The notes under the pieces: generated by a model
Database searches by the model: none
Told to the model about the DNA's origin: nothing
What the model saw: the letters and a program-made list of their open reading frames with translations, nothing else
IMG/VR virus record: IMGVR_UViG_3300046526_000553
Span: 64,001-128,000 of that record
From: a virus
Taxonomy: Duplodnaviria; Caudoviricetes
Strand: one strand, 5' to 3'
DNA length: 64,000 nt
Shown here: positions 8,399-61,835 of the stretch, in pieces
Layout of the letters: the number at the start of each line of letters is the position of its first letter
How positions within the stretch are numbered: position 1 is the stretch's first letter
Made by a program: the position numbers and the translations under genes

Positions 8399-8566
8399 TT
8401 ATTTACTGTTCCTTATCAGTTGTCGAATAATTTTACGTACCCACCCCGATGCGGTCATGCCTTCATCGTGCAAGATATCTATGAATTCGTCATAGGTATC
8501 CATGTCAACGTATACGACGATGCGTCTTTGCTGTTTTTGTTTTATCCTTGGGCTTAGTTGACTCAT
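8399..8566 (-). CDS. 55-aa possible ribbon-helix-helix protein
   Basis: MSQLSPRIKQKQQRRIVVYVDMDTYDEF...SGWVRKII read by eye; overlaps Ro60 3' end. Confidence 0.45.
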   Translation of the reverse strand: MSQLSPRIKQKQQRRIVVYVDMDTYDEFIDILHDEGMTASGWVRKIIRQLIRNSK

Positions 8567-10046
8567 ATAAATCAATCTTCTCTATCTTATTTACTAATGC
8601 GTTCTTATCGGTATTTAACAACTTTAACACGTCGAAAATTTTGTCTGAAAATCCAGCAATCTGATAGACCTGATTTTCAGGAAACTGCATCGTACCATAG
8701 CCACTTAAGTCAAAAGCGTAGATATATGGATTAGCACCTGTGCGCTTTTTATAATCCTCAAACTGAGCTTTTGGTGTGTAGTAACCTATCCATGCCTGCA
8801 TATCACTGAATATGAAGATGTGGTCATAGGCACGGCTAGCGGTTTCAAAGATAGCGTGAAAGTTAGTGCCATGACCTACAGAAGTGGGGGTGTTAGAACC
8901 ATAGCCATCGTTGCAGTCAGCTAACCAACGCAACTGACCTAGCACACTATCCTGTGTCACATTGTAATACTTGGCAGTATCACCAAAATACATGAAATCA
9001 GCATTGCTTTTCTTTGCCATTGCTACACCGAATAAAGCACCAATTTCGAAATTAGTAGCCTTGCTGCGTTCGCTCATAGAGCTATCCATGCTGCCACTGT
9101 GGTCAACGACCACTAAGGCATTATCGAAAGCAGGCATGTTATTGATTGAAATATCTAGTGCATTGCCAATAGCAGCCAGTGTTTTACGGGCTTCTGGACC
9201 TGCACCCCCATCAATTTCAGCAATTTCCTTATAGGCACTGAAATAACGGAACGGTAGAATCAATGATTTCTTGATAGCCTGCTCATTCTGCAATTGCTTC
9301 AAGGCAATATCAAGCACTTCAGGAGCCTGTTCAATAATATTTCTGAGGTTCCGTAGTAATGCAAACGCTGGAAGTTTGTCTTCCTTCAAAAGCTTAATCC
9401 ATGTATCGGCCTTAAGCTTATCCTTTTCAGCTTCGGTCTTTGCTTTCTGACCAGCCTGGACTAAGCCAGTCTCCCATGTATCAGAGGCACGTAAGGTACC
9501 TTTAATAAGCTGTTGAACAGCTTCGGTGTGAACCGGGTGAACTAGATTAGCTACATCAACAAGACTAACGTCCTTACCTTCGCCACGATATTTAGCTAAA
9601 TTGTAAGCGTTAAAATGTCCAAATGCCTGTGCAAAACCACGCTTAAGTGCATTAGGCTCTGTCTGATGACCAAGTGAATAATAATATGATAGAATTTCTG
9701 TCATATCATCTGGACGACGAATAACATTCTCGAAGAAATACTTTGTCCATGCTTCGCCCTTTACTCGATTAGCAATTTCACCAGCAACCACGTGGCTGAC
9801 ACTACGCATACCGAATTCATTACGAGCGTACACAGCAGCTTTGGCTGCAAACATAGGGTCTACGCTATTAAGTAATTCCTTGAGTTTATCAATGCCATCA
9901 TCAGAACTTCTATAATATTGATTCTGTACAAAACTTGTTAATAGGATTGATACAAACTCCAGCTTAGGGTTTTGCTGGAAAGCTTGACCACCAGCATTAT
10001 TAATAACCATAGTTGGTGAAGTTGTAGCGTTGAATCTACTGCTCAT
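8505..10046 (-). CDS. rsr: Ro60/TROVE-vWA RNA-binding protein
   Basis: NNAGGQAF N-terminus, YARNEFGMRS, ALLRNLRN TROVE motif, DHSGSM MIDAS vWA, IFSDMQ, IAGFSD. Confidence 0.95.
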   Translation of the reverse strand: MSSRFNATTSPTMVINNAGGQAFQQNPKLEFVSILLTSFVQNQYYRSSDDGIDKLKELLNSVDPMFAAKAAVYARNEFGMRSVSHVVAGEIANRVKGEAWTKYFFENVIRRPDDMTEILSYYYSLGHQTEPNALKRGFAQAFGHFNAYNLAKYRGEGKDVSLVDVANLVHPVHTEAVQQLIKGTLRASDTWETGLVQAGQKAKTEAEKDKLKADTWIKLLKEDKLPAFALLRNLRNIIEQAPEVLDIALKQLQNEQAIKKSLILPFRYFSAYKEIAEIDGGAGPEARKTLAAIGNALDISINNMPAFDNALVVVDHSGSMDSSMSERSKATNFEIGALFGVAMAKKSNADFMYFGDTAKYYNVTQDSVLGQLRWLADCNDGYGSNTPTSVGHGTNFHAIFETASRAYDHIFIFSDMQAWIGYYTPKAQFEDYKKRTGANPYIYAFDLSGYGTMQFPENQVYQIAGFSDKIFDVLKLLNTDKNALVNKIEKIDLYESTKPKDKTKTAKTHRRIR

Positions 10047-10059
10047 CTCATTCTCCTTG

Positions 10060-10128
10060 TAGGCGAGTAAAGTGCGGTTTGTGGGTTTTCAATTCCATTT
10101 GAAGTAACAAACCGCTCGCTGCGCCCTA
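10060..10128 (-). ncRNA. short Y-RNA-like gene (Y3)
   Basis: GCGAGCGGTTTG..TACTTC 5' arm pairs with CAAACCGCACTTTACTCGC; immediately 5' of rsr. Confidence 0.75.
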
Positions 10129-10146
10129 GTTGATAAAGTACCTTTA

Positions 10147-10276
10147 TGTGCGAGTAAATCATGGTTGGCGTTTCCCTTTCGGGATTCAGTTGGAGTTGAA
10201 CCAACAATCTTTACAATTGAAATGTAACGCTTAAACCAAATAAGCTATGAAGTAGCCAGACCATTCGCTACGCACA
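10147..10276 (-). ncRNA. Y-RNA-like gene with tRNA-like domain (Y2)
   Basis: same end motifs; internal D arm, anticodon arm and GGTTCAACTCC T arm. Confidence 0.8.
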
Positions 10277-10291
10277 GTGTAAAAGTTCTAA

Positions 10292-10424
10292 TGTACGGGT
10301 AAATTGTGGTTTGCAGATGATGACTTTCGTCATCGTTTCCAGCTTTCGCCGTTTTAGGGTTTGAACCTAATATTACATTTGTGGATGTAAATTATCCGAA
10401 GTAGCAAACCGCTCGCCTCGTACA
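10292..10424 (-). ncRNA. Y-RNA-like gene with partial tRNA-like domain (Y1)
   Basis: same end motifs; T arm TTAGGTTCAAACCCTAA; promoter TTGACT-17-TATTAT at 10431-10459. Confidence 0.8.
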
Positions 10425-10518
10425 CATCCTATAATAGGGCATAATTGTGCACAAGTCAACACCTTTTTTATAAATTAAAAAGCCACCTGATAAAGATGGC
10501 TTCCTAATCTACCCGTTT

Positions 10519-11265
10519 TTATCTTTGAAAGGCTTTTCTACTTCTTAGGTAGATAAATCTTCCGGCATAACCGAGCGCACTAACGCCTAGAAATGCTGGA
10601 ACGATAGAATTGCCTGCTCCAGTATTTGGCAATGTGGTCGGTTGATTTTGCGCAGTTGGCGTGAATGTCTTTGCTGGCTCACCTGCTCCCTTGCCTGTGT
10701 ACAATGGCGGTGGTACCGATGGAGGTGTTCCAGTAGGTGATGGCGGAGGAGTTACTGGTGCTGGAGGAGTAATCGGCGGGGGTACTGGAGGGGGTGTAGT
10801 TTTATCGCAAGGGCATGGTTTATTAACATGCCTCAGGTGATGTATATACACCTTTTTATCACAAGGTTTCTTGTGCTCATAATTTTTCTGATAAGATGTT
10901 TTAGTATCAACTTTCGTGTATGTCTCTTCGTGTGATACTTCTTTTTTCTTCTTATCACAGGGCTTCTTTTCATGTTCATTTACAATCCGTGGATGAGACT
11001 GTGGGATGACATCAGAATCTGATAAATACGGTTTCTGATATTCAGGCTGTTGTTGATTATCTTTCATATTCTGATTATTGCAATCACTATGATGGCTTTG
11101 TTTATCCTGATTATCCCAATTAGTATCTTTTGTATAGTGTGAATTATCCTGCTGACCACCGCTACAATCGATTGTTGCTAAGGCTGGTGCTGTACTAAGA
11201 GCAAAAACCCCAACCACAATAGTCGGAATGCTCCATACATATTGCCTATATTTATGTTTAATCAT
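10519..11265 (-). CDS. secreted LPXTG-type cell-surface protein
   Basis: signal peptide, Pro-rich linker, LPNTG + TM + basic tail. Confidence 0.8.
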   Translation of the reverse strand: MIKHKYRQYVWSIPTIVVGVFALSTAPALATIDCSGGQQDNSHYTKDTNWDNQDKQSHHSDCNNQNMKDNQQQPEYQKPYLSDSDVIPQSHPRIVNEHEKKPCDKKKKEVSHEETYTKVDTKTSYQKNYEHKKPCDKKVYIHHLRHVNKPCPCDKTTPPPVPPPITPPAPVTPPPSPTGTPPSVPPPLYTGKGAGEPAKTFTPTAQNQPTTLPNTGAGNSIVPAFLGVSALGYAGRFIYLRSRKAFQR

Positions 11266-11333
11266 TTTAATGACCTCCTTTAATGATATTATCCCTTATT
11301 ATACACCATCATTTCGTTTTGTGCACCACCAAA

Positions 11334-11561
11334 TTACTTTTTAATGCTGGACAAGTGATAATAGCCACAATTATCACAGAAATAATAATCTATATCTTCA
11401 TCTGAATGAGTACTAGCAAAAGCAGCTGCACTGTTCGCTTCATTCGGTGTATGATATGTTGTTTTTTGTTCGCAGCTATGTTTTACATAATATGGGACAT
11501 TGTCAAAATTATGTCTACTAAACCGCTGAGATATATTTCGAATACGTGATGCTTTGCCCAT
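11334..11561 (-). CDS. small Zn-binding phage protein
   Basis: C..K..Y.T..EA...Y.CDNCGYYHLSS. Confidence 0.65.
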   Translation of the reverse strand: MGKASRIRNISQRFSRHNFDNVPYYVKHSCEQKTTYHTPNEANSAAAFASTHSDEDIDYYFCDNCGYYHLSSIKK

Positions 11562-11576
11562 GATTTTATTATACGC

Positions 11577-11789
11577 CTATTTTAGCTTGATGTTCGGGAT
11601 AGTAGATTCCCTTGCAACATAGACCTTGAATTCATCAAATAATATATTTCTTAAGAATTTATCGCATTGTTCGCACAAACCGAGTGACCACGAATCAAAA
11701 TTATAAACATGGTGGATTTTTATACCATCGGATTCAATGTGTTCGCAGTTTCTAAAGATAGGGTTAGGTAGGTTGGCTGCTTTGGTCAT
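11577..11789 (-). CDS. hypothetical protein (true start MTKAAN)
   Basis: ATG 7 nt below GGTGGTATAAT; longer track ORF runs into the repeat array. Confidence 0.55.
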   Translation of the reverse strand: MTKAANLPNPIFRNCEHIESDGIKIHHVYNFDSWSLGLCEQCDKFLRNILFDEFKVYVARESTIPNIKLK

Positions 11790-11814
11790 ATAGTTATTAT
11801 ACCACCTGCAGCCA

Positions 11815-12426
11815 ACCTGTGTTAGGAGAAGAGTAAAGCCATGCCTTGCCTGCCTTTCCGTACCAACAAGCGCTACCTCGACCGGACACAACTCAACTCG
11901 TCTTGAGGCGACCGGACTCGTGGCGACTCGCCTGCCATGGCTGGACGCTTCGAGACTCGCGATGACCGGACCGGACATCCACGACTCGCTCAGACCTAGC
12001 GCTCCCAGTCACATCTGGACTCGCCGGGACGTGGCTTGACTCACCTGCACTACCTTGATTATGCGGAAACCGGTCATGACAAAACCTATCTCGAAACGTC
12101 TCGTCTCAACACAACATGCCTGCCTTGAGGAGACTTGACGCACCTGGACCTAACTCGACTCGGCTCAACTCGTCGTGAGGAGACTTGACCGGACACTCCT
12201 AGCCTGCCATGAATTGACTCACCTTGACCCGTCAGGAGATGACTTGACCGGACGCACCTCGTCTTGCCTGCCCTGCCTGGACAACCCCAACTTGCCACGA
12301 AAAGAGGTGTCTGAACTTATTGCGACTTTCCCAGCCTGCTATTCCACTCCATGTCATGCCTAGACAATCGCACCGGGACATGACGTGACGAAACGTGACT
12401 CGCCTGCCCTGTCTAAGTTATTAGAC
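11815..12426 (-). ncRNA. VIPR-like guide array A: units of G(G/T/A)Y-NN pentamers separated by GGCA
   Basis: strict 5-nt periodicity, e.g. ggcta ggagt gtccg gtcaa gtctc ctcac gacga gttga gccga gtcga; about 8 units delimited by GGCAGGC. Confidence 0.85.
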
Positions 12427-12996
12427 CTAGACCGGAACAGCTACAAATCCATTAGTCGTACTAATATCTTCGTTTTTACTGTTCTTATCAGCTCCCTTAA
12501 TCCGAGCACGATTTGAAGTTTTCTTCGCCGGTTTAGATATAGCCACATCTTCTTTCTCTTTGGCTTCATCGACCGCTTGCCACACTTTAGCTAATTCAAC
12601 AATATGCTTGTATTTATTCTCAACATTAGTTAATTCAACTAAAGCAGTTTTTAAAAACTGTTCCCGTAAGTCTGGACGTTCCAAAACATCTGTCGTCCAT
12701 CGAAAGCCTCCACCTGCGTCTCTGTCAATATCCAGAGAGGTTAGAACTCTAACTTCGGTATCTAATTGTTCAGAATAAACAGTAAAGCTTTTGATAAGCT
12801 GCCTAGCTTCTTCCAGATTCCAACGATTAGCAGCTTCATCTTTATCCCAAGTGAAAAATTTATGAAGTGGGCTTGATGGCTTTCTAGCTGATTCAACAAG
12901 TGCTTCTTCTTTTAACAAACCATTAGCATCGATGTTCATTAACCTGCTAAATTCAGACTGAACTTCTGCCGTTAGTTTTTTCGGAAAACTATTCAT
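12427..12996 (-). CDS. accessory protein of the RAMP/array operon
   Basis: AAGGAG RBS; GLL..EALVESAR.PSSPLHKFFTWD.DEAA.RW.LEEARQLI motif; sits between RAMP gene and array. Confidence 0.8.
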   Translation of the reverse strand: MNSFPKKLTAEVQSEFSRLMNIDANGLLKEEALVESARKPSSPLHKFFTWDKDEAANRWNLEEARQLIKSFTVYSEQLDTEVRVLTSLDIDRDAGGGFRWTTDVLERPDLREQFLKTALVELTNVENKYKHIVELAKVWQAVDEAKEKEDVAISKPAKKTSNRARIKGADKNSKNEDISTTNGFVAVPV

Positions 12997-13031
12997 GTCT
13001 TCTCCTTATATTATTAATATTATTATTGAAA

Positions 13032-13170
13032 GGCTGGCGCTGCTGGAGTATAAACCATATTGATTTATTAATCAAGCTTTGCCAGCCTTGCCGTGACGAA
13101 CCACGACTGGTCTTGTGGCATCTGGACTCAACAAGACTCGACTCGCCTGCCAAACATTGCCTTGACTTAT
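13032..13170 (-). ncRNA. single pentamer guide unit plus hairpin between the two operon genes
   Basis: ggca ggcga gtcga gtctt gttga gtcca gatgc cacaa gacca gtcgt ggttc gtcac ggcaa; GGCTGGC/GCCAGCC stem. Confidence 0.75.
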
Positions 13171-13188
13171 AAGAAATAGTAAATTAAA

Positions 13189-13884
13189 CTACTTCTTAAC
13201 TTTGCTTACCTTTTTAGCAGGTTCCTTACCATCACTAGGGCTTGGGCTCTCGACATCAAATGTGCCAAAACCCAAACCAGCTGATGCTCGTGAATCAGGT
13301 CTTCCTTCACCTAGACCAACTTGCAGACCAACTCGACGGAGCAAATTTAACATATCTTCCAATGAAAATTGGTCTTCGTCAAATTTTATGACTGGCAAAG
13401 CATACCATTCACGCCACAAAGGACGAACACGAATGTCAAAAACACCTGTTGCATTTCTTACAGCAGCTTCGTTTCTTTCAGGTTCCCCGTAGATGCGTAC
13501 TAAAGGTTGCCCATCAACTTTGTCGAAACCTTGAGCTTTAACAAAGATGGAAAGCTTTGCGCGAGTCATTGTGAACCCAGTCAAACGACATGCACTGATG
13601 GCTGCAGCTCGAATAGATGAAGCTGGAATCCCAATCCAACCCTCAATGCTCTTATGCATTGCTTGGTGGTAATCATCATCGAAGTTACGGGCTTCCCGTA
13701 CTTTCTTGGCTCCTTGCTTAGTTGAGCCATCCATTTTGCTCATCATCGCTTGCATAGCTTTTTGGCTAAAGCGAGATTGCATATACGGTGCATTACCTTT
13801 CAATTTAACCTGCACCGCTTTTATACGAGGCGCTGAAATTGCAACAGCGACCTCTTTTTTAGTAGATTTTTTTGGACTTGGCAT
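13189..13884 (-). CDS. Cas7/RAMP-superfamily-like protein (Vipr-like)
   Basis: beta1 VKLKGNAPY, GIPASSIRAAAISA (RAMP IPxSS helix), C-terminal Gly-rich loop GLGEGRP...GLGFGTFDV; no cas1/2/3/5 or CRISPR nearby. Confidence 0.8.
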   Translation of the reverse strand: MPSPKKSTKKEVAVAISAPRIKAVQVKLKGNAPYMQSRFSQKAMQAMMSKMDGSTKQGAKKVREARNFDDDYHQAMHKSIEGWIGIPASSIRAAAISACRLTGFTMTRAKLSIFVKAQGFDKVDGQPLVRIYGEPERNEAAVRNATGVFDIRVRPLWREWYALPVIKFDEDQFSLEDMLNLLRRVGLQVGLGEGRPDSRASAGLGFGTFDVESPSPSDGKEPAKKVSKVKK

Positions 13885-13923
13885 ATAACTCTTCTCCTTT
13901 ATTGTTAAGTTTATGCTTTATCC

Positions 13924-13952
13924 ACTATACACCAACGTAACAATTATGTCAA
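13924..13952 (-). promoter_or_regulatory. promoter of RAMP operon
   Basis: TTGACA-17 nt (ending TTGGTG)-TATAGT. Confidence 0.8.
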
Positions 13953-14230
13953 GTCATTTTTTTGTCTACATTTTAGTTCAATACTTGGACATGAACCACA
14001 TATTTCAGTTCATTATTTATTGAATTATTAATATACAAAATTGACAACAGGACAATAATTAATACGAATAACCCTAAAATAATAAGCTCCCGCAAATCCT
14101 TCTTCACCAACATCCTTTGATGATATTGTACAGCTTTTTGTTTCATTTTAATTTATAAATGTGGTTAAATTATTCCCATGAGTAGAGACAAGCCAAAACG
14201 AGAAAAAAAGAAGCCTAAGAAACCAAAGAG

Positions 14231-15559
14231 TCAGTAATACATACCGCCCAAAGTATCATCAACGAACAAGAACACTGTCCACATGACAGAACTTATTACT
14301 ATGCCGAAGAAAACTATCCAGAATCGCTGCCATCCACTGATGGCTATATCACCTATGAGATAACCGTAGCCTTTGTTTTTGTTCTGAATGCACTCCATAC
14401 ACGGACGTTTGAATTTGTGAATTCCATAAACTGTATTAGTTAAAATACCACTATTATTTTTATGCGGAATACCTATCACAACATCAGGGTCGAAATCTAC
14501 CCCTGTTAAGTTGTTCTGAATGTCCAAAAATAGAGCTTCATTTCCGGTTGGAAGACCACCAGAAGCTCGTGCCCAAGCAATTTTATTACTGCTATCATCA
14601 ACACCAACCACCACCACAACCGCATTCTTGGATAATGCATACTTATGGAAGTATAGTGGAGACTTCCAATAAGCAAAGAGAGCTTGACTATAATCGTCTG
14701 GGTTAGGGACGACAGACTTATCCACAGCTACCATGTGGATATCCCCCTGTAACTCCTTACCAAGATAGCCATTTAGTCTGTTGAGAGACTCATTCCAGGC
14801 TTTAGTATTAGCGCTAAACTTCACTGTGCTAAATTTATCTGCCATATACTCGTTGTATATGGGGTCTGAATAGTTTTTGGTTACTGGAGGCAATAGTCCT
14901 TTCTTCAAATATTGGCTGATATCATCACTGTAAGCATGTAGAATGGTCTGGTCACTAGCTAAAAAGAAGTTTTTGTAGTTATGGAGCTTCGTAACGCCTC
15001 CAGGCTTGCCTGAGTCTATCCTATTCTTAGCTTGCGACCATAAAGATGGCGGTCCTGTGGGGATACTACCTGATATATTTTCGCCACTTCGCCAAGCTTT
15101 CTTAACTTTGCCTGCATAAGCTCCACCAATTGGATAATCACCTAATGTGGTAGCAACGATATAGTGATATTCTTCAGTCAAATAGGGGCAATGATGATAT
15201 TCAGTCGTGTAATAGGTGTGTTCATGCCCTTTGCTGTCTTCGTAATGGTGAACGACAATATATGGGTCACAGCTGTAGGTATAATCACAATCGCCATCTC
15301 TTTCACACATCACCACTTTCGTGTTAGTGGCTGTTTCATAACCGTTAAAATATTCTTTGTAACTTTCCCTGTTGTTAATAATTATGTGTTCAGTCAAAGG
15401 GGCAAATAACAGTAGAAATAGGGTGCTGATAATCAACCCCAATATAAATTCCCTCTTACTGACTTTAATCGTGCCAGTGGGGATATTGGAATTAGTAACT
15501 ATATATGCAACACCGCCTATTATTGCACTGAGAATAATGGCGATTATTGCCGATAGCAT
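14231..15559 (-). CDS. membrane protein with large extracellular domain
   Basis: two N-terminal TMs, Cys-rich segment, C-terminal TM; follows LemA-like gene. Confidence 0.75.
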   Translation of the reverse strand: MLSAIIAIILSAIIGGVAYIVTNSNIPTGTIKVSKREFILGLIISTLFLLLFAPLTEHIIINNRESYKEYFNGYETATNTKVVMCERDGDCDYTYSCDPYIVVHHYEDSKGHEHTYYTTEYHHCPYLTEEYHYIVATTLGDYPIGGAYAGKVKKAWRSGENISGSIPTGPPSLWSQAKNRIDSGKPGGVTKLHNYKNFFLASDQTILHAYSDDISQYLKKGLLPPVTKNYSDPIYNEYMADKFSTVKFSANTKAWNESLNRLNGYLGKELQGDIHMVAVDKSVVPNPDDYSQALFAYWKSPLYFHKYALSKNAVVVVVGVDDSSNKIAWARASGGLPTGNEALFLDIQNNLTGVDFDPDVVIGIPHKNNSGILTNTVYGIHKFKRPCMECIQNKNKGYGYLIGDIAISGWQRFWIVFFGIVISSVMWTVFLFVDDTLGGMYY

Positions 15560-15561
15560 AA

Positions 15562-15774
15562 TTATGATTCTTCTGCAGGCTTATACTCACCTTGGTATAG
15601 ACCCATTTGTTCACCATCAAAATCAATATCGATTATATTTAATTTGCAATTCTCACAATATACTTGCAAGCCTTCTTTTGTCCAACCAACTGCTAATTGA
15701 CCCGACATACATTTTTTGCAATGAAAATATATATCAATGCGTGGTTCAATTTCATTATCCATTTTAATTACCAA
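15562..15774 (-). CDS. small Zn-finger protein
   Basis: HCKKC...VGWTKEGLQVYCENC. Confidence 0.6.
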   Translation of the reverse strand: MVIKMDNEIEPRIDIYFHCKKCMSGQLAVGWTKEGLQVYCENCKLNIIDIDFDGEQMGLYQGEYKPAEES

Positions 15775-16453
15775 AGAATTTCTGGGGCTCTAAATCACCG
15801 CTTTTGAAAGCATTGGAGGTAGTTCCTGAAACTATGACATGCGTCATGATTACATAGGCTGTCTGTCCTGTTTGCTGCCCATTACCATTATTTACCACCA
15901 AATTAGTGGTAGGAGCTCCAGTAATATGAGCAACGACCCAAGAACGGATAATCCCAGATTTACGCCATTGGTCATATTCCCGTAATTCATCCTGTAGTTT
16001 CTGTTGATTATTGCTAAAAGCGGTTCTACCGCTGGAAATAGTATCTAAAATACGGCTGTATGAACTATTCAGTGTATCAAGATTTGGATAAGCTTCATGT
16101 ATAGCTGAGAATAATGACCCACCAGTTGGGTTTATGCTAGTAGGAGCGCCAGTTTTACCCTGATACCTCCCTGAAACAGCATCTAACATTATTTTATCGA
16201 AACTAGCACTTTGAGCCTGTGTCACTCCAGCCTGTTCACGGGCTGTGGATAAAAAAGCGTCCAATCCAGCTTTCAAGCTCTCATATTGCCGTGACAATTG
16301 TACCTCTCGCTGCACATCAGCCTTCTGGAGACCGTTTACATACGAGAACATAGAGATTATCAGGATTAGTATTAAAAGTATCACAGAGATGCTTATAATA
16401 AGCCTCTTGGATAATTTAAATGTTGGCCTCGGTTCACTTTGCTCGTTTGGCAT
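15764..16453 (-). CDS. LemA-like membrane-anchored helical protein
   Basis: N-terminal TM, EAYPNL motif, ISSGRTAFSNNQ..L.D. Confidence 0.6.
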   Translation of the reverse strand: MPNEQSEPRPTFKLSKRLIISISVILLILILIISMFSYVNGLQKADVQREVQLSRQYESLKAGLDAFLSTAREQAGVTQAQSASFDKIMLDAVSGRYQGKTGAPTSINPTGGSLFSAIHEAYPNLDTLNSSYSRILDTISSGRTAFSNNQQKLQDELREYDQWRKSGIIRSWVVAHITGAPTTNLVVNNGNGQQTGQTAYVIMTHVIVSGTTSNAFKSGDLEPQKFFGN

Positions 16454-18137
16454 TAGTTCCCTTTCAGTTGTTATGTTAATAACTGGGAGTATACACGAAC
16501 ACAATCAATAAAGCAAGCCTAGGATTTATTTATCTATTTTTCGGCGGGGGTCATGACCAATGTTCTATTCCCTAAGATAGCGATACCACTTTACTGGATG
16601 TCGCACTATGTACCAAGTAAAGTGCAGCTCTAATAAACTCTTACTACCATTCCTGCGTTCAATTTCAAATTTCATACCGCTGGTAATTCTTCTTTGGTAT
16701 CAGGTAGGTTATCATATACCACCCTGTATCTCTTATCTCCACAGAAAGAACATCCTAAAGGTTTTCCATCTGAACCAACCATTTGTGCAGGAGTAATTCT
16801 TCGTTTCGGATTAGTTATATCAACAACCACACTTATTATTGCTCCACAGCCTAAACATTCGTAATGTTTTTGTAATTCATTCACAATTTAATTGTACAAT
16901 GAGGCTTAGCTATACACAATCTAGGTATTGCATATTTAATTATGTTGGTGTATAGTGCTAGGCATGAACAAGAAGCAATACGAAGAATCCCGAGCATTAA
17001 TTGATGAAGCAGATTCTATCTATGGAGACTTACCGGATGGTGCTTACTGGGCAGCATGTGAAGAATTCGGCGCGGATATGTATTTACAGATTGAGGTGGA
17101 TGAATATGAGACAGCTCATCATTTGGGTGTGCACAATAAGGATAAGGAGAAAACGGAATGAGTAAAGAGATAAGTATACCTTATAAAATGGGTAGAGATG
17201 ATTTTAAACGGGTAGCAGATAGAAAGACAGTTACACAGGTTTACAACGCTAGAATATATCTAGCAATAAAACGATCTAATGTTTTAGCGAAAAGGCTGCG
17301 TAATGACTAACCCACACGAACCAACAGAAGAACCGATACATACAATAACAATAGACGGCAAGCAATTTGAACTAGTAAGTAATCTGAATGATGAAGTCGT
17401 AATCCTCAAACCCCTACCCAAACAACCCGAAGAAGAAAAGAAGCAATCATATTGGACATACATTGAATCGTATGCGGGTAATGTTTTACGAGTAGAATCT
17501 GCATGGACTCCAAGTCAAGCCCAACTAGCCGCTGATGCTGTACGGGAATTGCTGAAATATATACAGGGCGACGAAAAACATTGGGATAAGGCTCATGCAG
17601 TAGTAATTAAAGCCCGTGACGCCCTAAAGGATTCAGAATGAGCAAATACAGCATTATCCGTGAACAAGATGACCCATTAGCATTGCGGTTGTCTATCGGT
17701 AGCCCGCATGGATTCGATACTAAAACCAATGGTTACATCGTCTACAGGGGCGATACTAAAGCTTGTATCGATTTGCTTGAGAATGCACTGGAAAAATTCA
17801 AACAATACTATGAAGAACAAGGAGAATAATATGAGCAAATTTAAACATACTTTCGATGACAGCACTCAAGAATCCTTCGAGGCTAATGGAGTAAGTGGCT
17901 GGCGACCTGCAATTGCAATGCCATACTTTGTCGGCTTCGGTCTAAAAAAGAGTAAGTGCAGATGTGGTCGAGTATTTAAAACTGAGGAAGATTTTAAAGC
18001 TCATTACATTTATAGGGCAGTTTGGGAAAATGAAAGCGGATGGATTCCTAAAATACTTGCAGATGCCCAAAGAGCTGGTCGATTAGCTAATGAGCTTGAA
18101 TCTTACGCCATCACCAATGAAGAAAAGGGGGAAAATC

Positions 18138-31300: not shown

Positions 31301-31745
31301 CTTATTTTTAAATTGCTTTAGTATTATTTTTAATACCTGAGTATATCATAAGCCATTGCTAGTGTATAAGCAAGGGTTTTTTAAGCCATTTTAAGCCTGT
31401 TTAAGCGTAGTTTACTTACTACCCTGTGAATGTATCAAGTATACAAAAACGCCCCTTACGGGGCGCTTGTGGTAGTGGCTAGCTGTTAATCTTATCAAGC
31501 GGTTTTAGTACCCTGTTGATAAGTGTCAGATTATTATGCTTACACTTTACAGTAACAATGTACTATCATCATTACTGTACTTACTATTATACGCTAGTCT
31601 GTACAAAATGTCAAGTATATTTTTAATAATCTTAAACAAAATACGAACAAAAATAAACCACCTATTATAGTGGTTTATTGCCTTGACCTGATGCGACTAG
31701 CCTGGACGTGCCCCAAGGCGTCACGATAAGCCATTATACTAGTTT

Positions 31746-35825: not shown

Positions 35826-36700
35826 ATTGCAACTTTCATTTTTTCGGCAATTTTTGTTGTATAAATTATATTGTAAATATTACTATGATATTATCCCATT
35901 TTATTGACTTTTTGTCAAACTTATGGTAAAGTATAGAATATTTATATTATAATATATTTTTGACAATTTGTCAATTTTATTGAAAAATAGGGAGGAGAAC
36001 GTTGTAAAATTTAAAATTTCCAGGGATGACGCAAAATTATTTCCATTGTCGCAGGAAGTTTGCGAAAAATGTTTTATTGTAGGATTCAAAAAAATTTTCA
36101 TTGTTGGAAACTATTTTCAATTTGTAATAAAATTTTTCTTGAGTAAAAAAACTATTTTTACCTTTTATCATAATTCAATTATAGGACATAAAATCTAATT
36201 TGTAAATAGGGATATATCTATAGGAATTTGGCTTATAAATTCGCCAAAGATATAATATAATATGGAGATGATTTTAAGCTTGAGCCATTATTTATATTAT
36301 GATAGTTCCCAAATCTGTTTTGGTTGATTTCTCGATTGATTTTGGTAATATCTTTGGAGATACGTATGAATAGATTGAAAACACTTCTATTATTAATCTT
36401 TATTTTTTATATGTTTTTAGTTTGGTTATTCCATCAGTTGTTTTTTACTTCGTTTCGATTATGAATTTGTTTTGGTTTCTGTTATGTTTGTTTAGTGAGT
36501 TTGTTTTAAGGTTTAAAAGAGAGTTATGACATATATTTGACAGAAATACCAAGAGGGGGTTTAGGTGGGGTGGGTAACCCCCATCAAAGAGGGTACCTCA
36601 GTGGGGTACGCCCCCAAAACAATGACGGTCTTAAAGTACCTAACTTCCCACCCCAAATTAAAGGATGGTCAAAGCAAAATCTAATTTCAGAATAACATTT

Positions 36701-42071: not shown

Positions 42072-43539
42072 GATTAGTTGTCCCCATTTAAGAATAAATA
42101 CCACACATGACCAAATAAGTACATATTGACATTTATCTATTGTTGGTGTATTATACTGTGGACAACCTAACTGAAAGGAGTAAGTCATAATGGCGTTTAG
42201 GCGTGGATACCCTGAAAAGCTAAAGATAGCTAAAAGGGCTGGATTAGAGCCGACTAAGGATAGTGTACGGCTAATTAATAGTGTTTCAAATAAGAACCTG
42301 AAAAGGAAAGGAAAATTTGCCATATGATGTTATGGCATAGTTTGCTATATTAGCAACTCATTACATAACATTTCTATCATGTTACCAAAATTACAACATA
42401 ATTCTTACAACAAAATAATCGTTGTAATTTCTGGCATTTCAGGGTTCGTTCTCGGCGGGCGACAGATACCACCCCTGTAGAATTTTTCCTGTTGCCCCCG
42501 TCAAAAAAATTCCGTTGTCTGAAATTTTTTTGATTGACGAGCAAAATAAATTTGATTGAAGTGGAAAAAAAATTTAATTGATTAGAAGAAATTGATTACC
42601 CCCCGATTCAAACATACCCTACAATTTGATATTCTAAGACAAATGATTCCTGATATAGCTAGGAATTATTTCTAATCACCATCACTATCACTTGAGCTTT
42701 TGTGGGAAGTCAACATGATAATTCCAAAAGCCAATGTCCAACCACCTGCCACCAAATGGCTATGCATGAGCAAATAAACTCCTACGAGCACCAAGAATAT
42801 GCCAGCAGTAATATATAATATATATCTTAACCAGTTCATGCCATCAATCTCCTTGTTTATGAGGTGAAGATGATTTGAAATCAATAATTTCTGCTAAGTC
42901 CCATCTCAAGCTGGAATAATCGCCTTCAGATATCACTATGATGAATTTGTTAATCATTCTATTCTCGGTAATATCTCCCATATTTTTGCCTATCGATTTG
43001 GTTGAAAACTTCCCTAGAACCAAGGATGGGGTATTAATTTCGACCGCCCCCATTCCAAGAAGGGGGTACGGTTTCCTGGCTGGAATAACTTGACGGTCAG
43101 GCTGAAACCAAATTTCCAAAATCGATTTACTCTAGCGGGTTCGTTTCTCTTCACCACTTTCTTCCTTCTCTGCCGTAGACCAACGATTCTCAGATTGTGG
43201 AAAGGATATCGCATCAGCTGTGCCAATATATCTCAGTTCATACACATCATTGTATCTCTGTATCCTCACAGGATGGTCAATCGCCTCATTAAATATTCCT
43301 TTAGAATTGTGTAATATAGCCGTTATATTATATGTTTTTATCATCGTAGTTTCTCCTCCATCTCAAGATATTCTATCAACTGGTTGACCGCTACCACCAA
43401 ATCAGGCAGTACCTCCTCTATGGGTCGGGGTTTAGTTAACCCTTCGTTGAGTGTTTCTGACAAATCTACTTTATCTGGTAAGTTCATATTAATTTTCTCG
43501 TTGATTACCGACTAGCGTTAAACCTATTGGCTGAAAGAC

Positions 43540-48688: not shown

Positions 48689-49234
48689 CTAATTCCCCAT
48701 ATCTGGCGCTGAAGCCGTACTAATTTGTGAAAGGTCTGGCGGAGGCGAATCGGATGGTTGAGGCGCAGGTGGTTGGACAGGGGGAGGAGTTACAGTCGGT
48801 GGAGCTGGGTTATCCACAGGCTGTGGAGGGATTGTGGTGGAAGGTTTAGGCTGCACATAATCCACTTCCTGCTCATGATGTTTATGACCATGCCTCCCAT
48901 GTTTTGAATAGTTATAATCACCTGAATAATTACTGTAATTATTGTTGTTGTATGACGGGCTTGTATAGTATTGCGAACCAGTATTTGAAGTATATTGGTT
49001 ATCTGTTGTATTAGCGTTGGAGGCACCATAGGGCTGAGCCCCGGCAGCTGAGCCCGGAATGATAGTAATCTGCTTGCTATTCACGAATGATGGTGGAGTC
49101 CATGGTTTATTAAATGGTGGGTTCTGGGTATCAGCTGAAGGTTTTTGGGTTGAACTTGGTATTAGGCTGATACATAAAAAAAATATCGCAACGGCGTAGA
49201 AGCACCGCTTTGGGGTTAAGTTAATGTATCTCAT
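48689..49234 (-). CDS. secreted Pro/Asn/Tyr-rich protein
   Basis: signal anchor, low complexity. Confidence 0.6.
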   Translation of the reverse strand: MRYINLTPKRCFYAVAIFFLCISLIPSSTQKPSADTQNPPFNKPWTPPSFVNSKQITIIPGSAAGAQPYGASNANTTDNQYTSNTGSQYYTSPSYNNNNYSNYSGDYNYSKHGRHGHKHHEQEVDYVQPKPSTTIPPQPVDNPAPPTVTPPPVQPPAPQPSDSPPPDLSQISTASAPDMGN

Positions 49235-50361
49235 CTCAGTTAATAGTATACTCCAATCTTAAATTATTTCTTTGATTTTTTTACCAATTTTATCGTCAAG
49301 TTTTTTACTGTTCTTTGTGCACAAAGATAATCCAAGCAGCACCTTCTTATCGTTTACAGTCATATAAGACTCTCGTAATTCATAGGTTGAACGGGTTTGG
49401 GAAGAAATCTGTTTAGCAAAAGAATTATTGAAGAATGTTATCTCCACGATGTTCTTGAACTCAGATATCTTGGCTGTACCGATTGGCGGGTTCACGTAAT
49501 CAAATTCCCACATAACCACTGGGTTAGAATCGTACTCGGATATATCTAACCCGTTTAGATTGAATATGAATGTTTTGGTCACAGCTAGTTTCCTTTCAAT
49601 GGTTAATTAGGCTCTGTGAAGCTCTGAAAGCGTGTCTGCGTTGTCTTAGAACAATAATTGGAGAGTTTAACGTTTGAAACCAAAATAGCCTTAGACGGGC
49701 TATATGTGCGTCTGCAGATATTCTGATTCTGTCGGATAGTTGGTGGTTTCTGGATAGGTGTAGGAATAATATTATGCTTAGTGTTAAGCATCCCGCCTAC
49801 AATTAATGCAAGCGGGGTTAACACGAATATTATCAGGATGTCTCTGAGAATACCTCTAATCATTATTTCTTAGCGTCTACCTTAGTTTTACGGTTCTCTT
49901 CCAACTGTTTCAAGTCTTTAATTAATGCTGCCATATTAGATTTCAGAATATATCGCCACAGAATAGTTTGACCTTCATCTGTGACATTCTGGCATTCATC
50001 AATAATTCCTGCCTCAGTTAATAATCTATCTTCCTCGCTAAGATTTAAGTTTTTAAGTTCATTACCAATATTACCATCTGACATATTGTCTCCTTGTTTA
50101 CTATTTATTGGCTCTATTTCATAATCACACATGGTATGAGAAGTAGAGTCTGGTCGTTCAGCACGACATTGATAACCGTCATCAATGTCATTAACCTGTG
50201 TTACAATTATTATTTGCCCAGGTTCAAAGTTTTGGCTAGAATCGCTCTTAACCCGAACCCTATCTCCAACTTCAGCCTTAAATCCTTTCATCAATTCCTC
50301 CCAATTAGTTAATAATATCCCTTAATATACACCAACACATTGGAAATGTCAAATATGTAAA

Positions 50362-60919: not shown

Positions 60920-60948
60920 TTGACATTTCCGTTACGCTGGTGTATATT
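60920..60948 (+). promoter_or_regulatory. promoter of array B
   Basis: TTGACA-17 nt (ending CTGGTG)-TATATT, 7 nt before first pentamer. Confidence 0.8.
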
Positions 60949-60955
60949 AATTATT

Positions 60956-61835
60956 GGCTTGGATAGTCCTGCTTAGACACCTCTGGGCTCGGTGCGTCAC
61001 GGCTAGGCGAGGCAGGCGAGTTGAGTCTGGTCTCGGTGCGTCGTGGCACGTCGTGGTGCGTTGTGGTAATCGGAGCGGGGCAGGTTATGTTCAGGCAAGT
61101 CGGGGCTACGCAGGCACGTCGCCATTTGGCTAGATACGGTTAGTCTAGATATGTTTAGACAGGGCATGGCAGGCAAGGCTGGGTTCCGATGACTCGTTGG
61201 GGCTGGTCGTCACGAGTCACGGCTAGGCGAGGCAGGCTAGGAAAGTCGGGATGCGTCCCGCCATGTCGAGGCGCGTGATGACATGACAAGATATGGACAG
61301 GCAGGCTTGGCACCGATGTCGCGGTCAGTCGAGACCTGTCAGGGTCAGACTAAGCATGGCAGGCGGGGGAAGTCGCGTCGGGTTGAGCCGGGGTTTGGTT
61401 TGTCGGGTCTTGAGTTAGCGTGTTCTGTTGAGGTTAGGCAGGCAAGTCGTTTCTTGGTATGTCTCCTCGTGGCACGTCGAGTCATGTCAAGGCGTTACAC
61501 GGCAGGCATGACGTGGATGGCGAGTTCCGACGAGTCCGTGCGAGATTAGGCAATGCAGGCAAGATGTGACAGGTTCTGTTGTGTCGAGTTTTGTCAGGTT
61601 GGGGCGTAGCTAAGCAATGCATGGCAGGCAAGTCGAGTCCCGGTTAATCGGGTCGAGTCCGGACGAGTCTTGGCGGGGCGAGGTAAGGTGCGATTATTAT
61701 TGACTTTTAGGTGGTGTTGGTGTAATGTATATTATTGGCGGGGAATGTCGAGGCATACTGAGTTAAGTCTTGGTGAGTCAGGTCGAGACTAGTCAATGCA
61801 GGTACGTCGAGGTTTATTATGTCGAGTCAAGGCTT
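60956..61835 (+). ncRNA. VIPR-like guide array B (stand-alone, ~14 units, second internal promoter 61700-61728)
   Basis: G(G/T/A)Y-NN periodicity, GGCA/TGCA separators, GC-rich island in AT-rich DNA. Confidence 0.85.

Follow-up and report, generated by a model that had tools for sequence, protein, structure and literature searches.

We analyzed a 64,000-nucleotide stretch of viral DNA (the window), bases 64001-128000 of the 143,778-base IMG/VR virus record IMGVR_UViG_3300046526_000553, which CheckV rates as 94% complete. On the minus strand of the window, a promoter-like site is followed by a gene for a 231-amino-acid (aa) protein, one unit of pentamers, a gene for a 189-aa protein and a pentamer array of about 570 nucleotides (nt) (Table 1). 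The similarities of the protein and the structure of the tracts indicate that these features very probably constitute a system of the VIPR (Viral Interference Programmable Repeat) kind, carried by an uncultured phage of 144 kb. The locus had first been picked out by a model that saw only the letters (the original prediction), which described one promoter driving a 231-aa RAMP-like gene, a single repeat unit, a 189-aa accessory gene and an array. The genes and arrays were found at the positions that it gave, on the minus strand. The single promoter is plausible, if unproven. The site before the first gene agrees with the consensus at 11 of 12 positions, a weaker promoter-like site (13075..13047, 9 of 12 matches) precedes the 189-aa gene, and no convincing terminator was found inside the locus.

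VIPR was reported in April 2026 as a phage-borne, CRISPR-related, RNA-guided silencer of DNA (10.64898/2026.04.26.720920). As described in that preprint, the loci contain a RAMP protein, Vipr, usually one vap gene and no CRISPR array, and are carried mostly by viruses and proviruses. Their long intergenic regions encode vrRNAs of 9-16 YNNGG repeats; in the characterised systems these pentamer tracts are the RNAs that co-purify with Vipr, and DNA is read through the NN dinucleotides with one target base skipped (10.64898/2026.04.26.720920). Cryo-electron microscopy placed one Vipr protomer on each pentamer (10.64898/2026.04.26.720927), and solo or orphan vrRNAs lying away from vipr were described in October 2026 (10.64898/2026.10.15.759431). 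The features that the original prediction had named in calling the locus VIPR-like (the Vipr RAMP, vap, GGY/NN guides, a protomer per pentamer and gapped DNA recognition) have all been published. This kind of system is already known, and the locus is a further example of it, with a scaffold that is relaxed at its second position (p2). Like most VIPR systems it is carried by a virus, as its place in an IMG/VR virus record shows, although such carriage is typical of the family and not obligatory. It has the minimal composition of a VIPR locus, vipr with one accessory gene, and neither a CRISPR array nor other cas genes were found among the ORFs listed for 9000-17000 and the five neighbors scanned between 8505 and 15559.

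Table 1. Positions of the VIPR locus, its guide units and the second array in the window.
Feature	Position	Strand	Basis or content
Promoter-like site before vipr, TTGACA-17 nt-TATAGT	13952..13924	-	11/12 consensus matches, best in region
vipr, 231-aa RAMP (Cas7-like)	13189..13884	-	Foldseek, VIA-align and profile match to SUSP1 Vipr
Solo vrRNA unit S, between vipr and vap	13075..13155	-	GGCAGGC at 13151, then 13 pentamers 13147..13083
vap-like accessory gene, 189 aa	12427..12996	-	Homologues adjoin Vipr in related loci
Staggered vrRNA array, ~7 units	11848..12420	-	Period 5, GGCAGGC boundaries
U1	12404-12365	-	8 pentamers
U2	12268-12209	-	12 pentamers
U3	12204-12125	-	16 pentamers
U4a	12120-12066	-	11 pentamers
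U4b	12045-11981	-	13 pentamers
U4c	11976-11937	-	8 pentamers
U5	11932-11873	-	12 pentamers; tail irregular
Second, orphan vrRNA array, ~14 units, ~900 nt	60920-61835	+	GGCAGGC junctions and promoter type as in the vipr locus, which is 47 kb away

The 231-aa protein has a Cas7-like fold and is related to Vipr

The 231-aa protein matched no family in Pfam. In PHROGs it matched phrog_4652, a family of unknown function (E 5e-16), and its own family comprises 2139 clusters at 50% identity that score E <= 0.001. We modelled it with AlphaFold2 from 33 homologues (mean pLDDT 76, pTM 0.69). The top Foldseek matches of the model were all Cas7-family RAMPs, namely type III-A Csm3 and type VII Cas7 (E ~1e-5, prob 1.00), and alignment with VIA-align gave Z-scores of 9-10 over ~155-160 residues, which bears out the RAMP/Cas7-like fold proposed for this protein. 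Among the matches listed, 50 of 50 VIA-align entries were structures of CRISPR effector complexes (type III, type VII and gRAMP/Craspase), with best-chain Z-scores between 8.2 and 10.0.

A single-sequence search matched the protein to PDB entry 36pp_D, 'SUSP1 Vipr protein', at E 0.0028, and a 33-sequence profile matched the same entry at E 2.1e-5. Alignment to the Vipr open reading frame (ORF) of SUSP1 (L088:1453-2055, minus strand) using hhalign returned a probability of 95.9% and E 6.5e-9 over 57 columns, which cover the end of the thumb, the next helix, the loop rich in glycine (G-loop) and the last strand. In SUSP1 Vipr the thumb residue R138 contacts G2 of the RNA, the G-loop residues D177 and R179 contact G1 and Y3, respectively, and W178 stacks on G2 (10.64898/2026.04.26.720927). 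Both arginines are kept in the present protein, as R154 and R195, and D177 is conservatively replaced by E193, with the G-loop sequence GLGEGRP aligned to GVGDWRP of SUSP1. The protein thus combines the properties by which a Vipr is recognized: a single-RRM RAMP fold, a thumb, a glycine-rich loop and homology to the Vipr family.

The tracts are built from pentamers and divided by GGCAGGC

Within the array (12410..11850), sequence identity at lags of 5, 10 and 15 nt was 0.423, 0.396 and 0.385, compared with 0.261 +/- 0.020 in shuffles that kept the dinucleotide content (z of 8.2, 7.3 and 6.2). A period of five this far above chance agrees with the claim that the array is not of the repeat-spacer kind. 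Identity at lag 3 lay below the shuffle mean (z -2.3), so that there is no codon periodicity, which argues against coding. The ORFs of 62-133 aa that can be drawn over the arrays had no Pfam match; translation of the arrays into conserved proteins, which the original prediction had itself named as an outcome that would speak against it, was therefore looked for and found neither as a period of three nor as a known family.

Read from each GGCAGGC, the pentamers follow the layout G-(T/G/A)-(C/T)-N-N. Over 101 pentamers, the first scaffold position (p1) was G at a frequency of 0.89, p2 was T at 0.53, G at 0.24, A at 0.16 and C at 0.07, and the third (p3) was C at 0.71 and T at 0.25, while p4 and p5 had a near-even base composition. 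VIPR guides are marked by three conserved and two hypervariable bases in runs of at least 4 pentamers, typically 9-16, and the tracts have this form when the consensus G-D-Y is counted as related to GGY. Units of about 8-16 pentamers had been predicted, and the parse yielded units of 8, 12, 16, 11, 13, 8 and 12 in addition to the solo unit of 13.

The heptamer GGCAGGC occurs 21 times on the two genome strands (143.8 kb), where 2.4 copies are expected per strand, and 15 of these copies fall in the two arrays, 7 in the vipr locus and 8 in the second array. The GGCA/GGC junction is an exact 1-nt overlap of two pentamer registers. Its spacings in the vipr locus were 64, 84, 69, 79 and 64 nt, all equal to 4 modulo 5, alongside irregular spacings of 82, 63 and 58 nt. 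The junction is common to 41 related loci that we collected from IMG/VR, metagenomes and Cyanophage Cy-LDV1, and 178 of 202 successive spacings in the related loci were of the form 5n+4, with modes at 39, 44, 49 and 54 nt. Together, the 1-nt overlap and the 5n+4 spacing in the relatives assign the locus to the clade of staggered arrays. No constant tail follows the units. An Rfam search had no match at E <= 1, hence none to hammerhead-type spacer elements. The architecture is therefore staggered, with a 1-nt overlap and no long constant tail, and some of its junctions are irregular: two unit boundaries are degenerate (TGCAGGT and GGAT), and stretches of ~90 nt (12364..12273) and ~20 nt (12065..12046) are not pentameric. 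The original description of GGCA-ended units that shift the register holds for the GGCAGGC boundaries with their 5n+4 spacing, but not for these two boundaries and two stretches.

Guides U3 and U2 match serine recombinase loci

Guides were written as NN-x-NN-x, following the published rule of a 1-nt skip. Written in this way, the NN string of U3 reads Y-V-R-K-S-T-[DE]x4-[RS]-[HQ]-A-[KN]-S-[KN], which corresponds to the N-terminal, catalytic YVRKSTEDEERQ motif of large serine recombinases. These enzymes are the typical integrases of prophages and integrative elements. The core of U3 (its first ten dinucleotides, 20 specified bases) had 39 exact matches in a 596-Gb set of species-representative genomes, where ~1 would be expected. 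Twenty of the matched records are named Saccharibacteria, Saccharimonadales or Saccharimonadia and 8 are other Patescibacteria, such that 28 of the 39 are metagenome-assembled genomes (MAGs) of Patescibacteria type. All 39 matches are in frame on Y-V-R-K-S-T-[DE]4, with the skipped base at the wobble position. In most loci they lie near the N-terminus of the ORF, although the in-frame stretch upstream of the likely start codon varies, and where complete the targeted ORFs are mostly 480-610 aa long. The full guide matched at 24-29 of its 32 bases, most often at 28, the value also seen in the main Saccharibacteria group (motif LRYIGYVRKSTEDEERQVLSK). In the four targeted ORFs that were scanned we found Resolvase, Recombinase and Zn_ribbon_recom domains, which identifies these ORFs as large serine recombinases. 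No gene with a Resolvase domain was found in the phage record itself. U3 runs in the direction of the coding strand and spans the first 16 codons past the start region; it could therefore base-pair with the template strand of the DNA and not with the mRNA, in keeping with DNA targeting.

Of 301 Saccharimonadia genomes, one contained a match to U2, at 21 of 24 bases, and none contained a match to the reversed-pattern control. The U2 match falls, in frame, within a 65-aa ORF (L087:1404-1601, minus strand) that lies directly upstream of a large serine recombinase gene (L087:3-1382, minus strand). The 65-aa ORF belongs to no Pfam family; it may be a recombination directionality gene or a regulatory gene of an integrative element. 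The discovery preprint set its cut-off for targets at 80% (10.64898/2026.04.26.720920), and at least 80% of the NN positions are matched, in the NNxNNx pattern, by both U3 (28-29 of 32) and U2 (21 of 24). On these matches, U3 probably targets serine recombinase genes.

The other guides gave no such signal. On 40 fetched target loci, U1, U4a, U4b, U4c, U5 and S performed no better than shuffled guides, and S had 0 matches in 201 Saccharimonadia genomes. Searches of IMG/VR with five patterns of 20-32 bases (one with all of U3 and four with 10-NN cores, those of U3, U4a, U2 and U5) likewise returned 0 matches. A reading of U4a as the DRxxR motif of serine recombinases found no support on 39 recombinase loci, where its best match was 16 of 22, within the null. 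Self-regulation was discarded, because no guide matched the phage genome above the shuffled-guide null.

The second scaffold position is T-rich

The scaffold of this locus is richer in GTC and GAC than the canonical one, as had been noted originally. In the operon array p2 is T in 53%, G in 24% and A in 16% of pentamers, and in the orphan array the frequencies are 0.40 for T, 0.38 for G and 0.15 for A. Among the 41 relatives, whose Vipr proteins are 47-65% identical to this one (the closest Vipr proteins, P0002-P0030 at 70-81%, lie outside the set), p2 is G in 57-100% of pentamers and T in at most 20%, at any GC content from 0.41 to 0.67. Despite the T-rich p2 elsewhere, the canonical GGC is kept at the GGCAGGC junctions. 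This Vipr thus appears, from the composition of its guides, to tolerate any purine or T at a position that is kept as G in its relatives.

Two causes for the T-rich p2 were considered and rejected. Low GC content of the phage does not account for it, since relatives at 41-45% GC (L013, L014, L027, L031, L035 and L037) keep G in 85-100% of pentamers. Nor does the exchange of SUSP1 W178 for glycine, since relatives whose guides are canonical GGC all have the same GEGRP loop. The protein departs from its relatives at 14 columns that are at least 85% conserved among them: N31, S37, S54, Q57, N67, S90, T102, T105, Q118, A140, F149, L156, M178 and L191. Four of these lie near published contacts. S37 aligns, weakly, to SUSP1 H17; F149, which is already common among the closest Vipr relatives, and L156 lie on either side of the thumb arginine R154; and L191 is in the G-loop. 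We infer from their location that the substitutions at S37, F149, L156 and L191 might cause the relaxation of p2.

It is conceivable, although on balance doubtful, that this Vipr has lost or changed its read-out of the second scaffold base, with p2 truly not read. G1 and Y3 alone would then suffice for assembly of the filament, and GGC, retained only at the GGCAGGC junctions, might mark the boundaries of guides. If true, the locus would amount to a natural experiment defining the minimal scaffold code of VIPR. In any case, it is a naturally occurring variant with which to ask what scaffold bases Vipr requires, a question that affects how much freedom there is in the design of VIPR guides.

The 189-aa protein is a conserved accessory protein

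The 189-aa protein has no Pfam match and no sequence match in the PDB; it matches phrog_15946. Homologues (phmmer, 1e-5 to 1e-13) adjoin Vipr in 25 or more related loci, and the protein shares 29% identity with g33 of Cy-LDV1 (E 7e-10). This recurrence next to Vipr and the similarity to g33 identify the gene as a conserved accessory gene. No similarity was detected to Vap1 of SUSP1 (E 4.5). A structural model (pLDDT 72) consists of three short helices and a β-hairpin, followed by one long helix (residues 108-170), and its only Foldseek matches in BFVD were two uncharacterised phage proteins.

Comparison with known systems

Staggered VIPR arrays, as set out in the legend to fig. S18 of the discovery preprint (10.64898/2026.04.26.720920), have in common with this locus a Vipr RAMP with one accessory gene, a phage-borne and pentamer-flanked setting, and back-to-back guides that overlap by 1 nt without a long constant tail. 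Compared with that description, the present locus has mostly T at p2, and its arrays are divided, with part in the operon, part in a remote orphan array and part in solo units.

The type II VIPR of Escherichia phage SUSP1 (PDB 36pp; NC_028808) has a homologous Vipr in which the thumb and G-loop arginines are conserved as they are here. Its guides also span 9-16 pentamers, one of them lies upstream of the main array, and one is predicted to match the recombinase gene of a rival element. The two systems differ in several respects. Each SUSP1 guide carries a pseudoknot tail of ~40 nt, and none is present here; vipr and vap1 adjoin in SUSP1, whereas here a guide lies between vipr and the accessory gene; and the tryptophan that sits on G2 in SUSP1 is a glycine in this Vipr. 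Type II, the SUSP1/P. fulva clade, is marked by the ~40-nt pseudoknot 3' tail and by vap1. With no tail, nothing returned from Rfam and an accessory protein dissimilar to Vap1 (E 4.5), the locus falls outside it.

Non-canonical VIPR repeats obtained with a genomic language model include GAC/NN, CAC/NN, WGT/NN and TGH/NN (10.64898/2026.10.21.760802). As in the present locus, these are 5-nt guides with a fixed non-GGY trinucleotide alongside a Vipr-like fold. The motifs named in the text of that preprint are either fixed or degenerate at base 1 or 3, and GTC/NN may be among those in its fig. S10; here, it is the middle base that is degenerate (G-D-Y), and GGC is kept at the unit junctions.

The protein resembles the Cas7/Csm3 backbone subunits of class 1 CRISPR effectors in its RRM core, thumb hairpin and glycine-rich loop (Z ~10 to Csm3), and a filament along the guide is expected in both. 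In contrast to those effectors, the register is 5 nt and not 6, with two of five bases exposed, and the target would be double-stranded DNA by analogy with SUSP1. Assignment to a class 1 (type III-like) CRISPR-Cas system can be set aside, given that no repeat-spacer array and no Cas10, Cas5, Cas6 or other effector or adaptation genes were found in the locus.

The closest relative in a named phage is the g34-g33 pair of Cyanophage Cy-LDV1 (BK059895), annotated as hypothetical proteins, with a Vipr that is 60.6% identical. The order of vipr, pentamers, vap and pentamers is the same, and the arrays are delimited by GGCAGGC. The Cy-LDV1 locus differs in its canonical GGC-NN guides (p2 G 0.83) and in its location in a lysogeny module beside an excisionase gene.

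Proposed working and alternative explanations

By analogy with the published mechanism, transcription of the locus would start at the strong promoter at 13952. Early transcription from this and the other TTGACA..TGGTGTATA promoter would supply Vipr, the accessory protein and the guide precursors, and at the GGCAGGC junctions the pentamer tracts would be cleaved into, or read as, individual vrRNAs. One Vipr protomer would occupy each pentamer, burying the three scaffold bases (G, T/G/A and C/T) and presenting the two variable ones. The resulting filament would pair with double-stranded DNA that carries the same dinucleotides with one skipped base between them, and would repress transcription there. 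A guide aimed at codon positions 1-2 of a catalytic motif could in this way cover many diverged copies of a gene.

With U3 on recombinase genes and U2 upstream of another, the likely job of the system in a Saccharibacteria host is to silence integration/excision modules belonging to rival integrative elements. Published natural targets of VIPR are satellites and prophages (10.64898/2026.04.26.720920; 10.64898/2026.10.15.759431). The SUSP1 system suppresses excision and amplification of its satellite, which its authors consider consistent with silencing of the satellite recombinase (10.64898/2026.10.15.759431), an action comparable to the one proposed here. The system has a concrete predicted target in the catalytic-serine motif of large serine recombinases, in parallel with SUSP1, the sole case studied experimentally. 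The locus therefore represents a well-anchored VIPR in a large phage, with guide targets that point to a Saccharibacteria host. To our knowledge, few phage-host links exist for Saccharibacteria.

Several observations weigh against this interpretation. By sequence, homology to SUSP1 Vipr can be detected over the C-terminal 57 columns alone, W178 of SUSP1 corresponds to a glycine (G194), and the fold of the accessory protein is not assignable, with a best Foldseek match in the PDB of E 0.9 and scattered, low-probability winged-helix matches. Candidate targets are available for only 2 of ~8 guides in the array of the vipr locus. The expectation of ~1 for the U3 core is arithmetic from the size of the database and not a run control, and the U2 match is a single one with an estimated ~0.16 expected by chance. 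Finally, the genes downstream of the targeted recombinase in one locus (L055) are ordinary glycogen genes, and the recombinases may belong to prophages, satellites or other elements.

The host glycogen genes beside the L055 recombinase, and the finding of U3 targets in contigs of bacterial MAGs with none matched in viral collections, would also fit a functional VIPR that acts on the host or times the phage's own genes, and not one directed against rival mobile elements. We regard this use as unlikely: the phage genome offers no guide match above the shuffled-guide null, large serine recombinases are generally integrases of prophages and integrative elements, and the natural targets published so far are satellites and prophages. 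Less probable still is a degenerate or decaying VIPR, in which the T/A-rich p2 would reflect lost selection on unbound guides and not a changed scaffold. The departure of p2 from all 41 relatives sampled, the irregular parts of the array (12364-12273, 12065-12046 and the tail of U5) and the many guides with no identified target could be read in this way. Erosion would, however, affect all scaffold positions and not one, and p1 and p3 are still constrained (G 0.89; C/T 0.96). Moreover, the two arrays, though separate, both retain intact GGCAGGC junctions, the vipr and vap ORFs behind the 11/12 promoter are undisrupted, and U3 still matches real genes at 88-91%.

That the pentamer tracts are not guide RNAs at all, and are instead translated or work at the level of DNA (for instance as phased binding sites for a protein, iterons or hot spots of recombination), is most improbable. 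ORFs can be drawn over the array, as noted above, but these have no Pfam match and the array has no period of three. The tracts stand beside a Vipr homologue in ~40 loci with the scaffold conserved and NN variable, the equivalent tracts of characterised systems are RNAs that co-purify with Vipr, and the published RNA-DNA rule puts U3 in frame on a foreign gene.

Further guides, promoters and neighboring genes

The guide repertoire of the phage extends beyond the operon. Outside the window, 5.3 kb before its start, 13 perfect G-N-Y-N-N pentamers (G000:C1:58660-58790, plus strand) have their own TGGTGTATAAT -10 element and are probably a further solo vrRNA. With the orphan array and this unit, the repertoire comes to roughly 30. 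In an AT-rich intergenic spot (31678-31734), 11 pentamers in a row conform to G-N-Y when read on either strand; they may be another solo guide or chance. The sequence AGACACCTCT has only two copies in the 144-kb genome, one per array (12312, minus strand; 60975, plus strand), and TTAGACAGGGCA precedes a GGCAGGC junction in both arrays (12416, minus strand; 61155, plus strand); both sequences are possible leader or processing signals. Lag-5 identity also exceeded the genome mean by more than 3.5 standard deviations in single 100-nt windows at 35861-35961, 36391-36511, 42301-42401 and 49201-49311.

A near-identical promoter sequence (TTGACA..GTTACG.TGGTGTATA) heads both the vipr operon and the orphan array at 60920. 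More widely, near-identical promoters of the form TTGACA-N17 with TTGGTGTATA(T/G)T occur at 13952, 45832, 48104 and 50352, all on the minus strand, and at 60920 on the plus strand. They probably represent one temporal class of phage promoters that includes both VIPR arrays. On the 3' side of the operon array there are another promoter-like site (11825..11796) and a small ORF.

The locus had no match among GenBank phages by megablast. The five neighboring ORFs (8505-15559) contained no cas family in Pfam or PHROGs, only TROVE/Ro60 and proteins of unknown function. The Ro60/TROVE-like protein, of 513 aa with a vWA domain, is encoded at 8505-10046 on the minus strand (Pfam TROVE, E 1.9e-17; phrog_850 'RNA-binding protein', E 2.5e-48). 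Y RNAs are the usual partners of Ro60 proteins, and the gene lies 1.8 kb past the 3' end of the VIPR operon array (11848).

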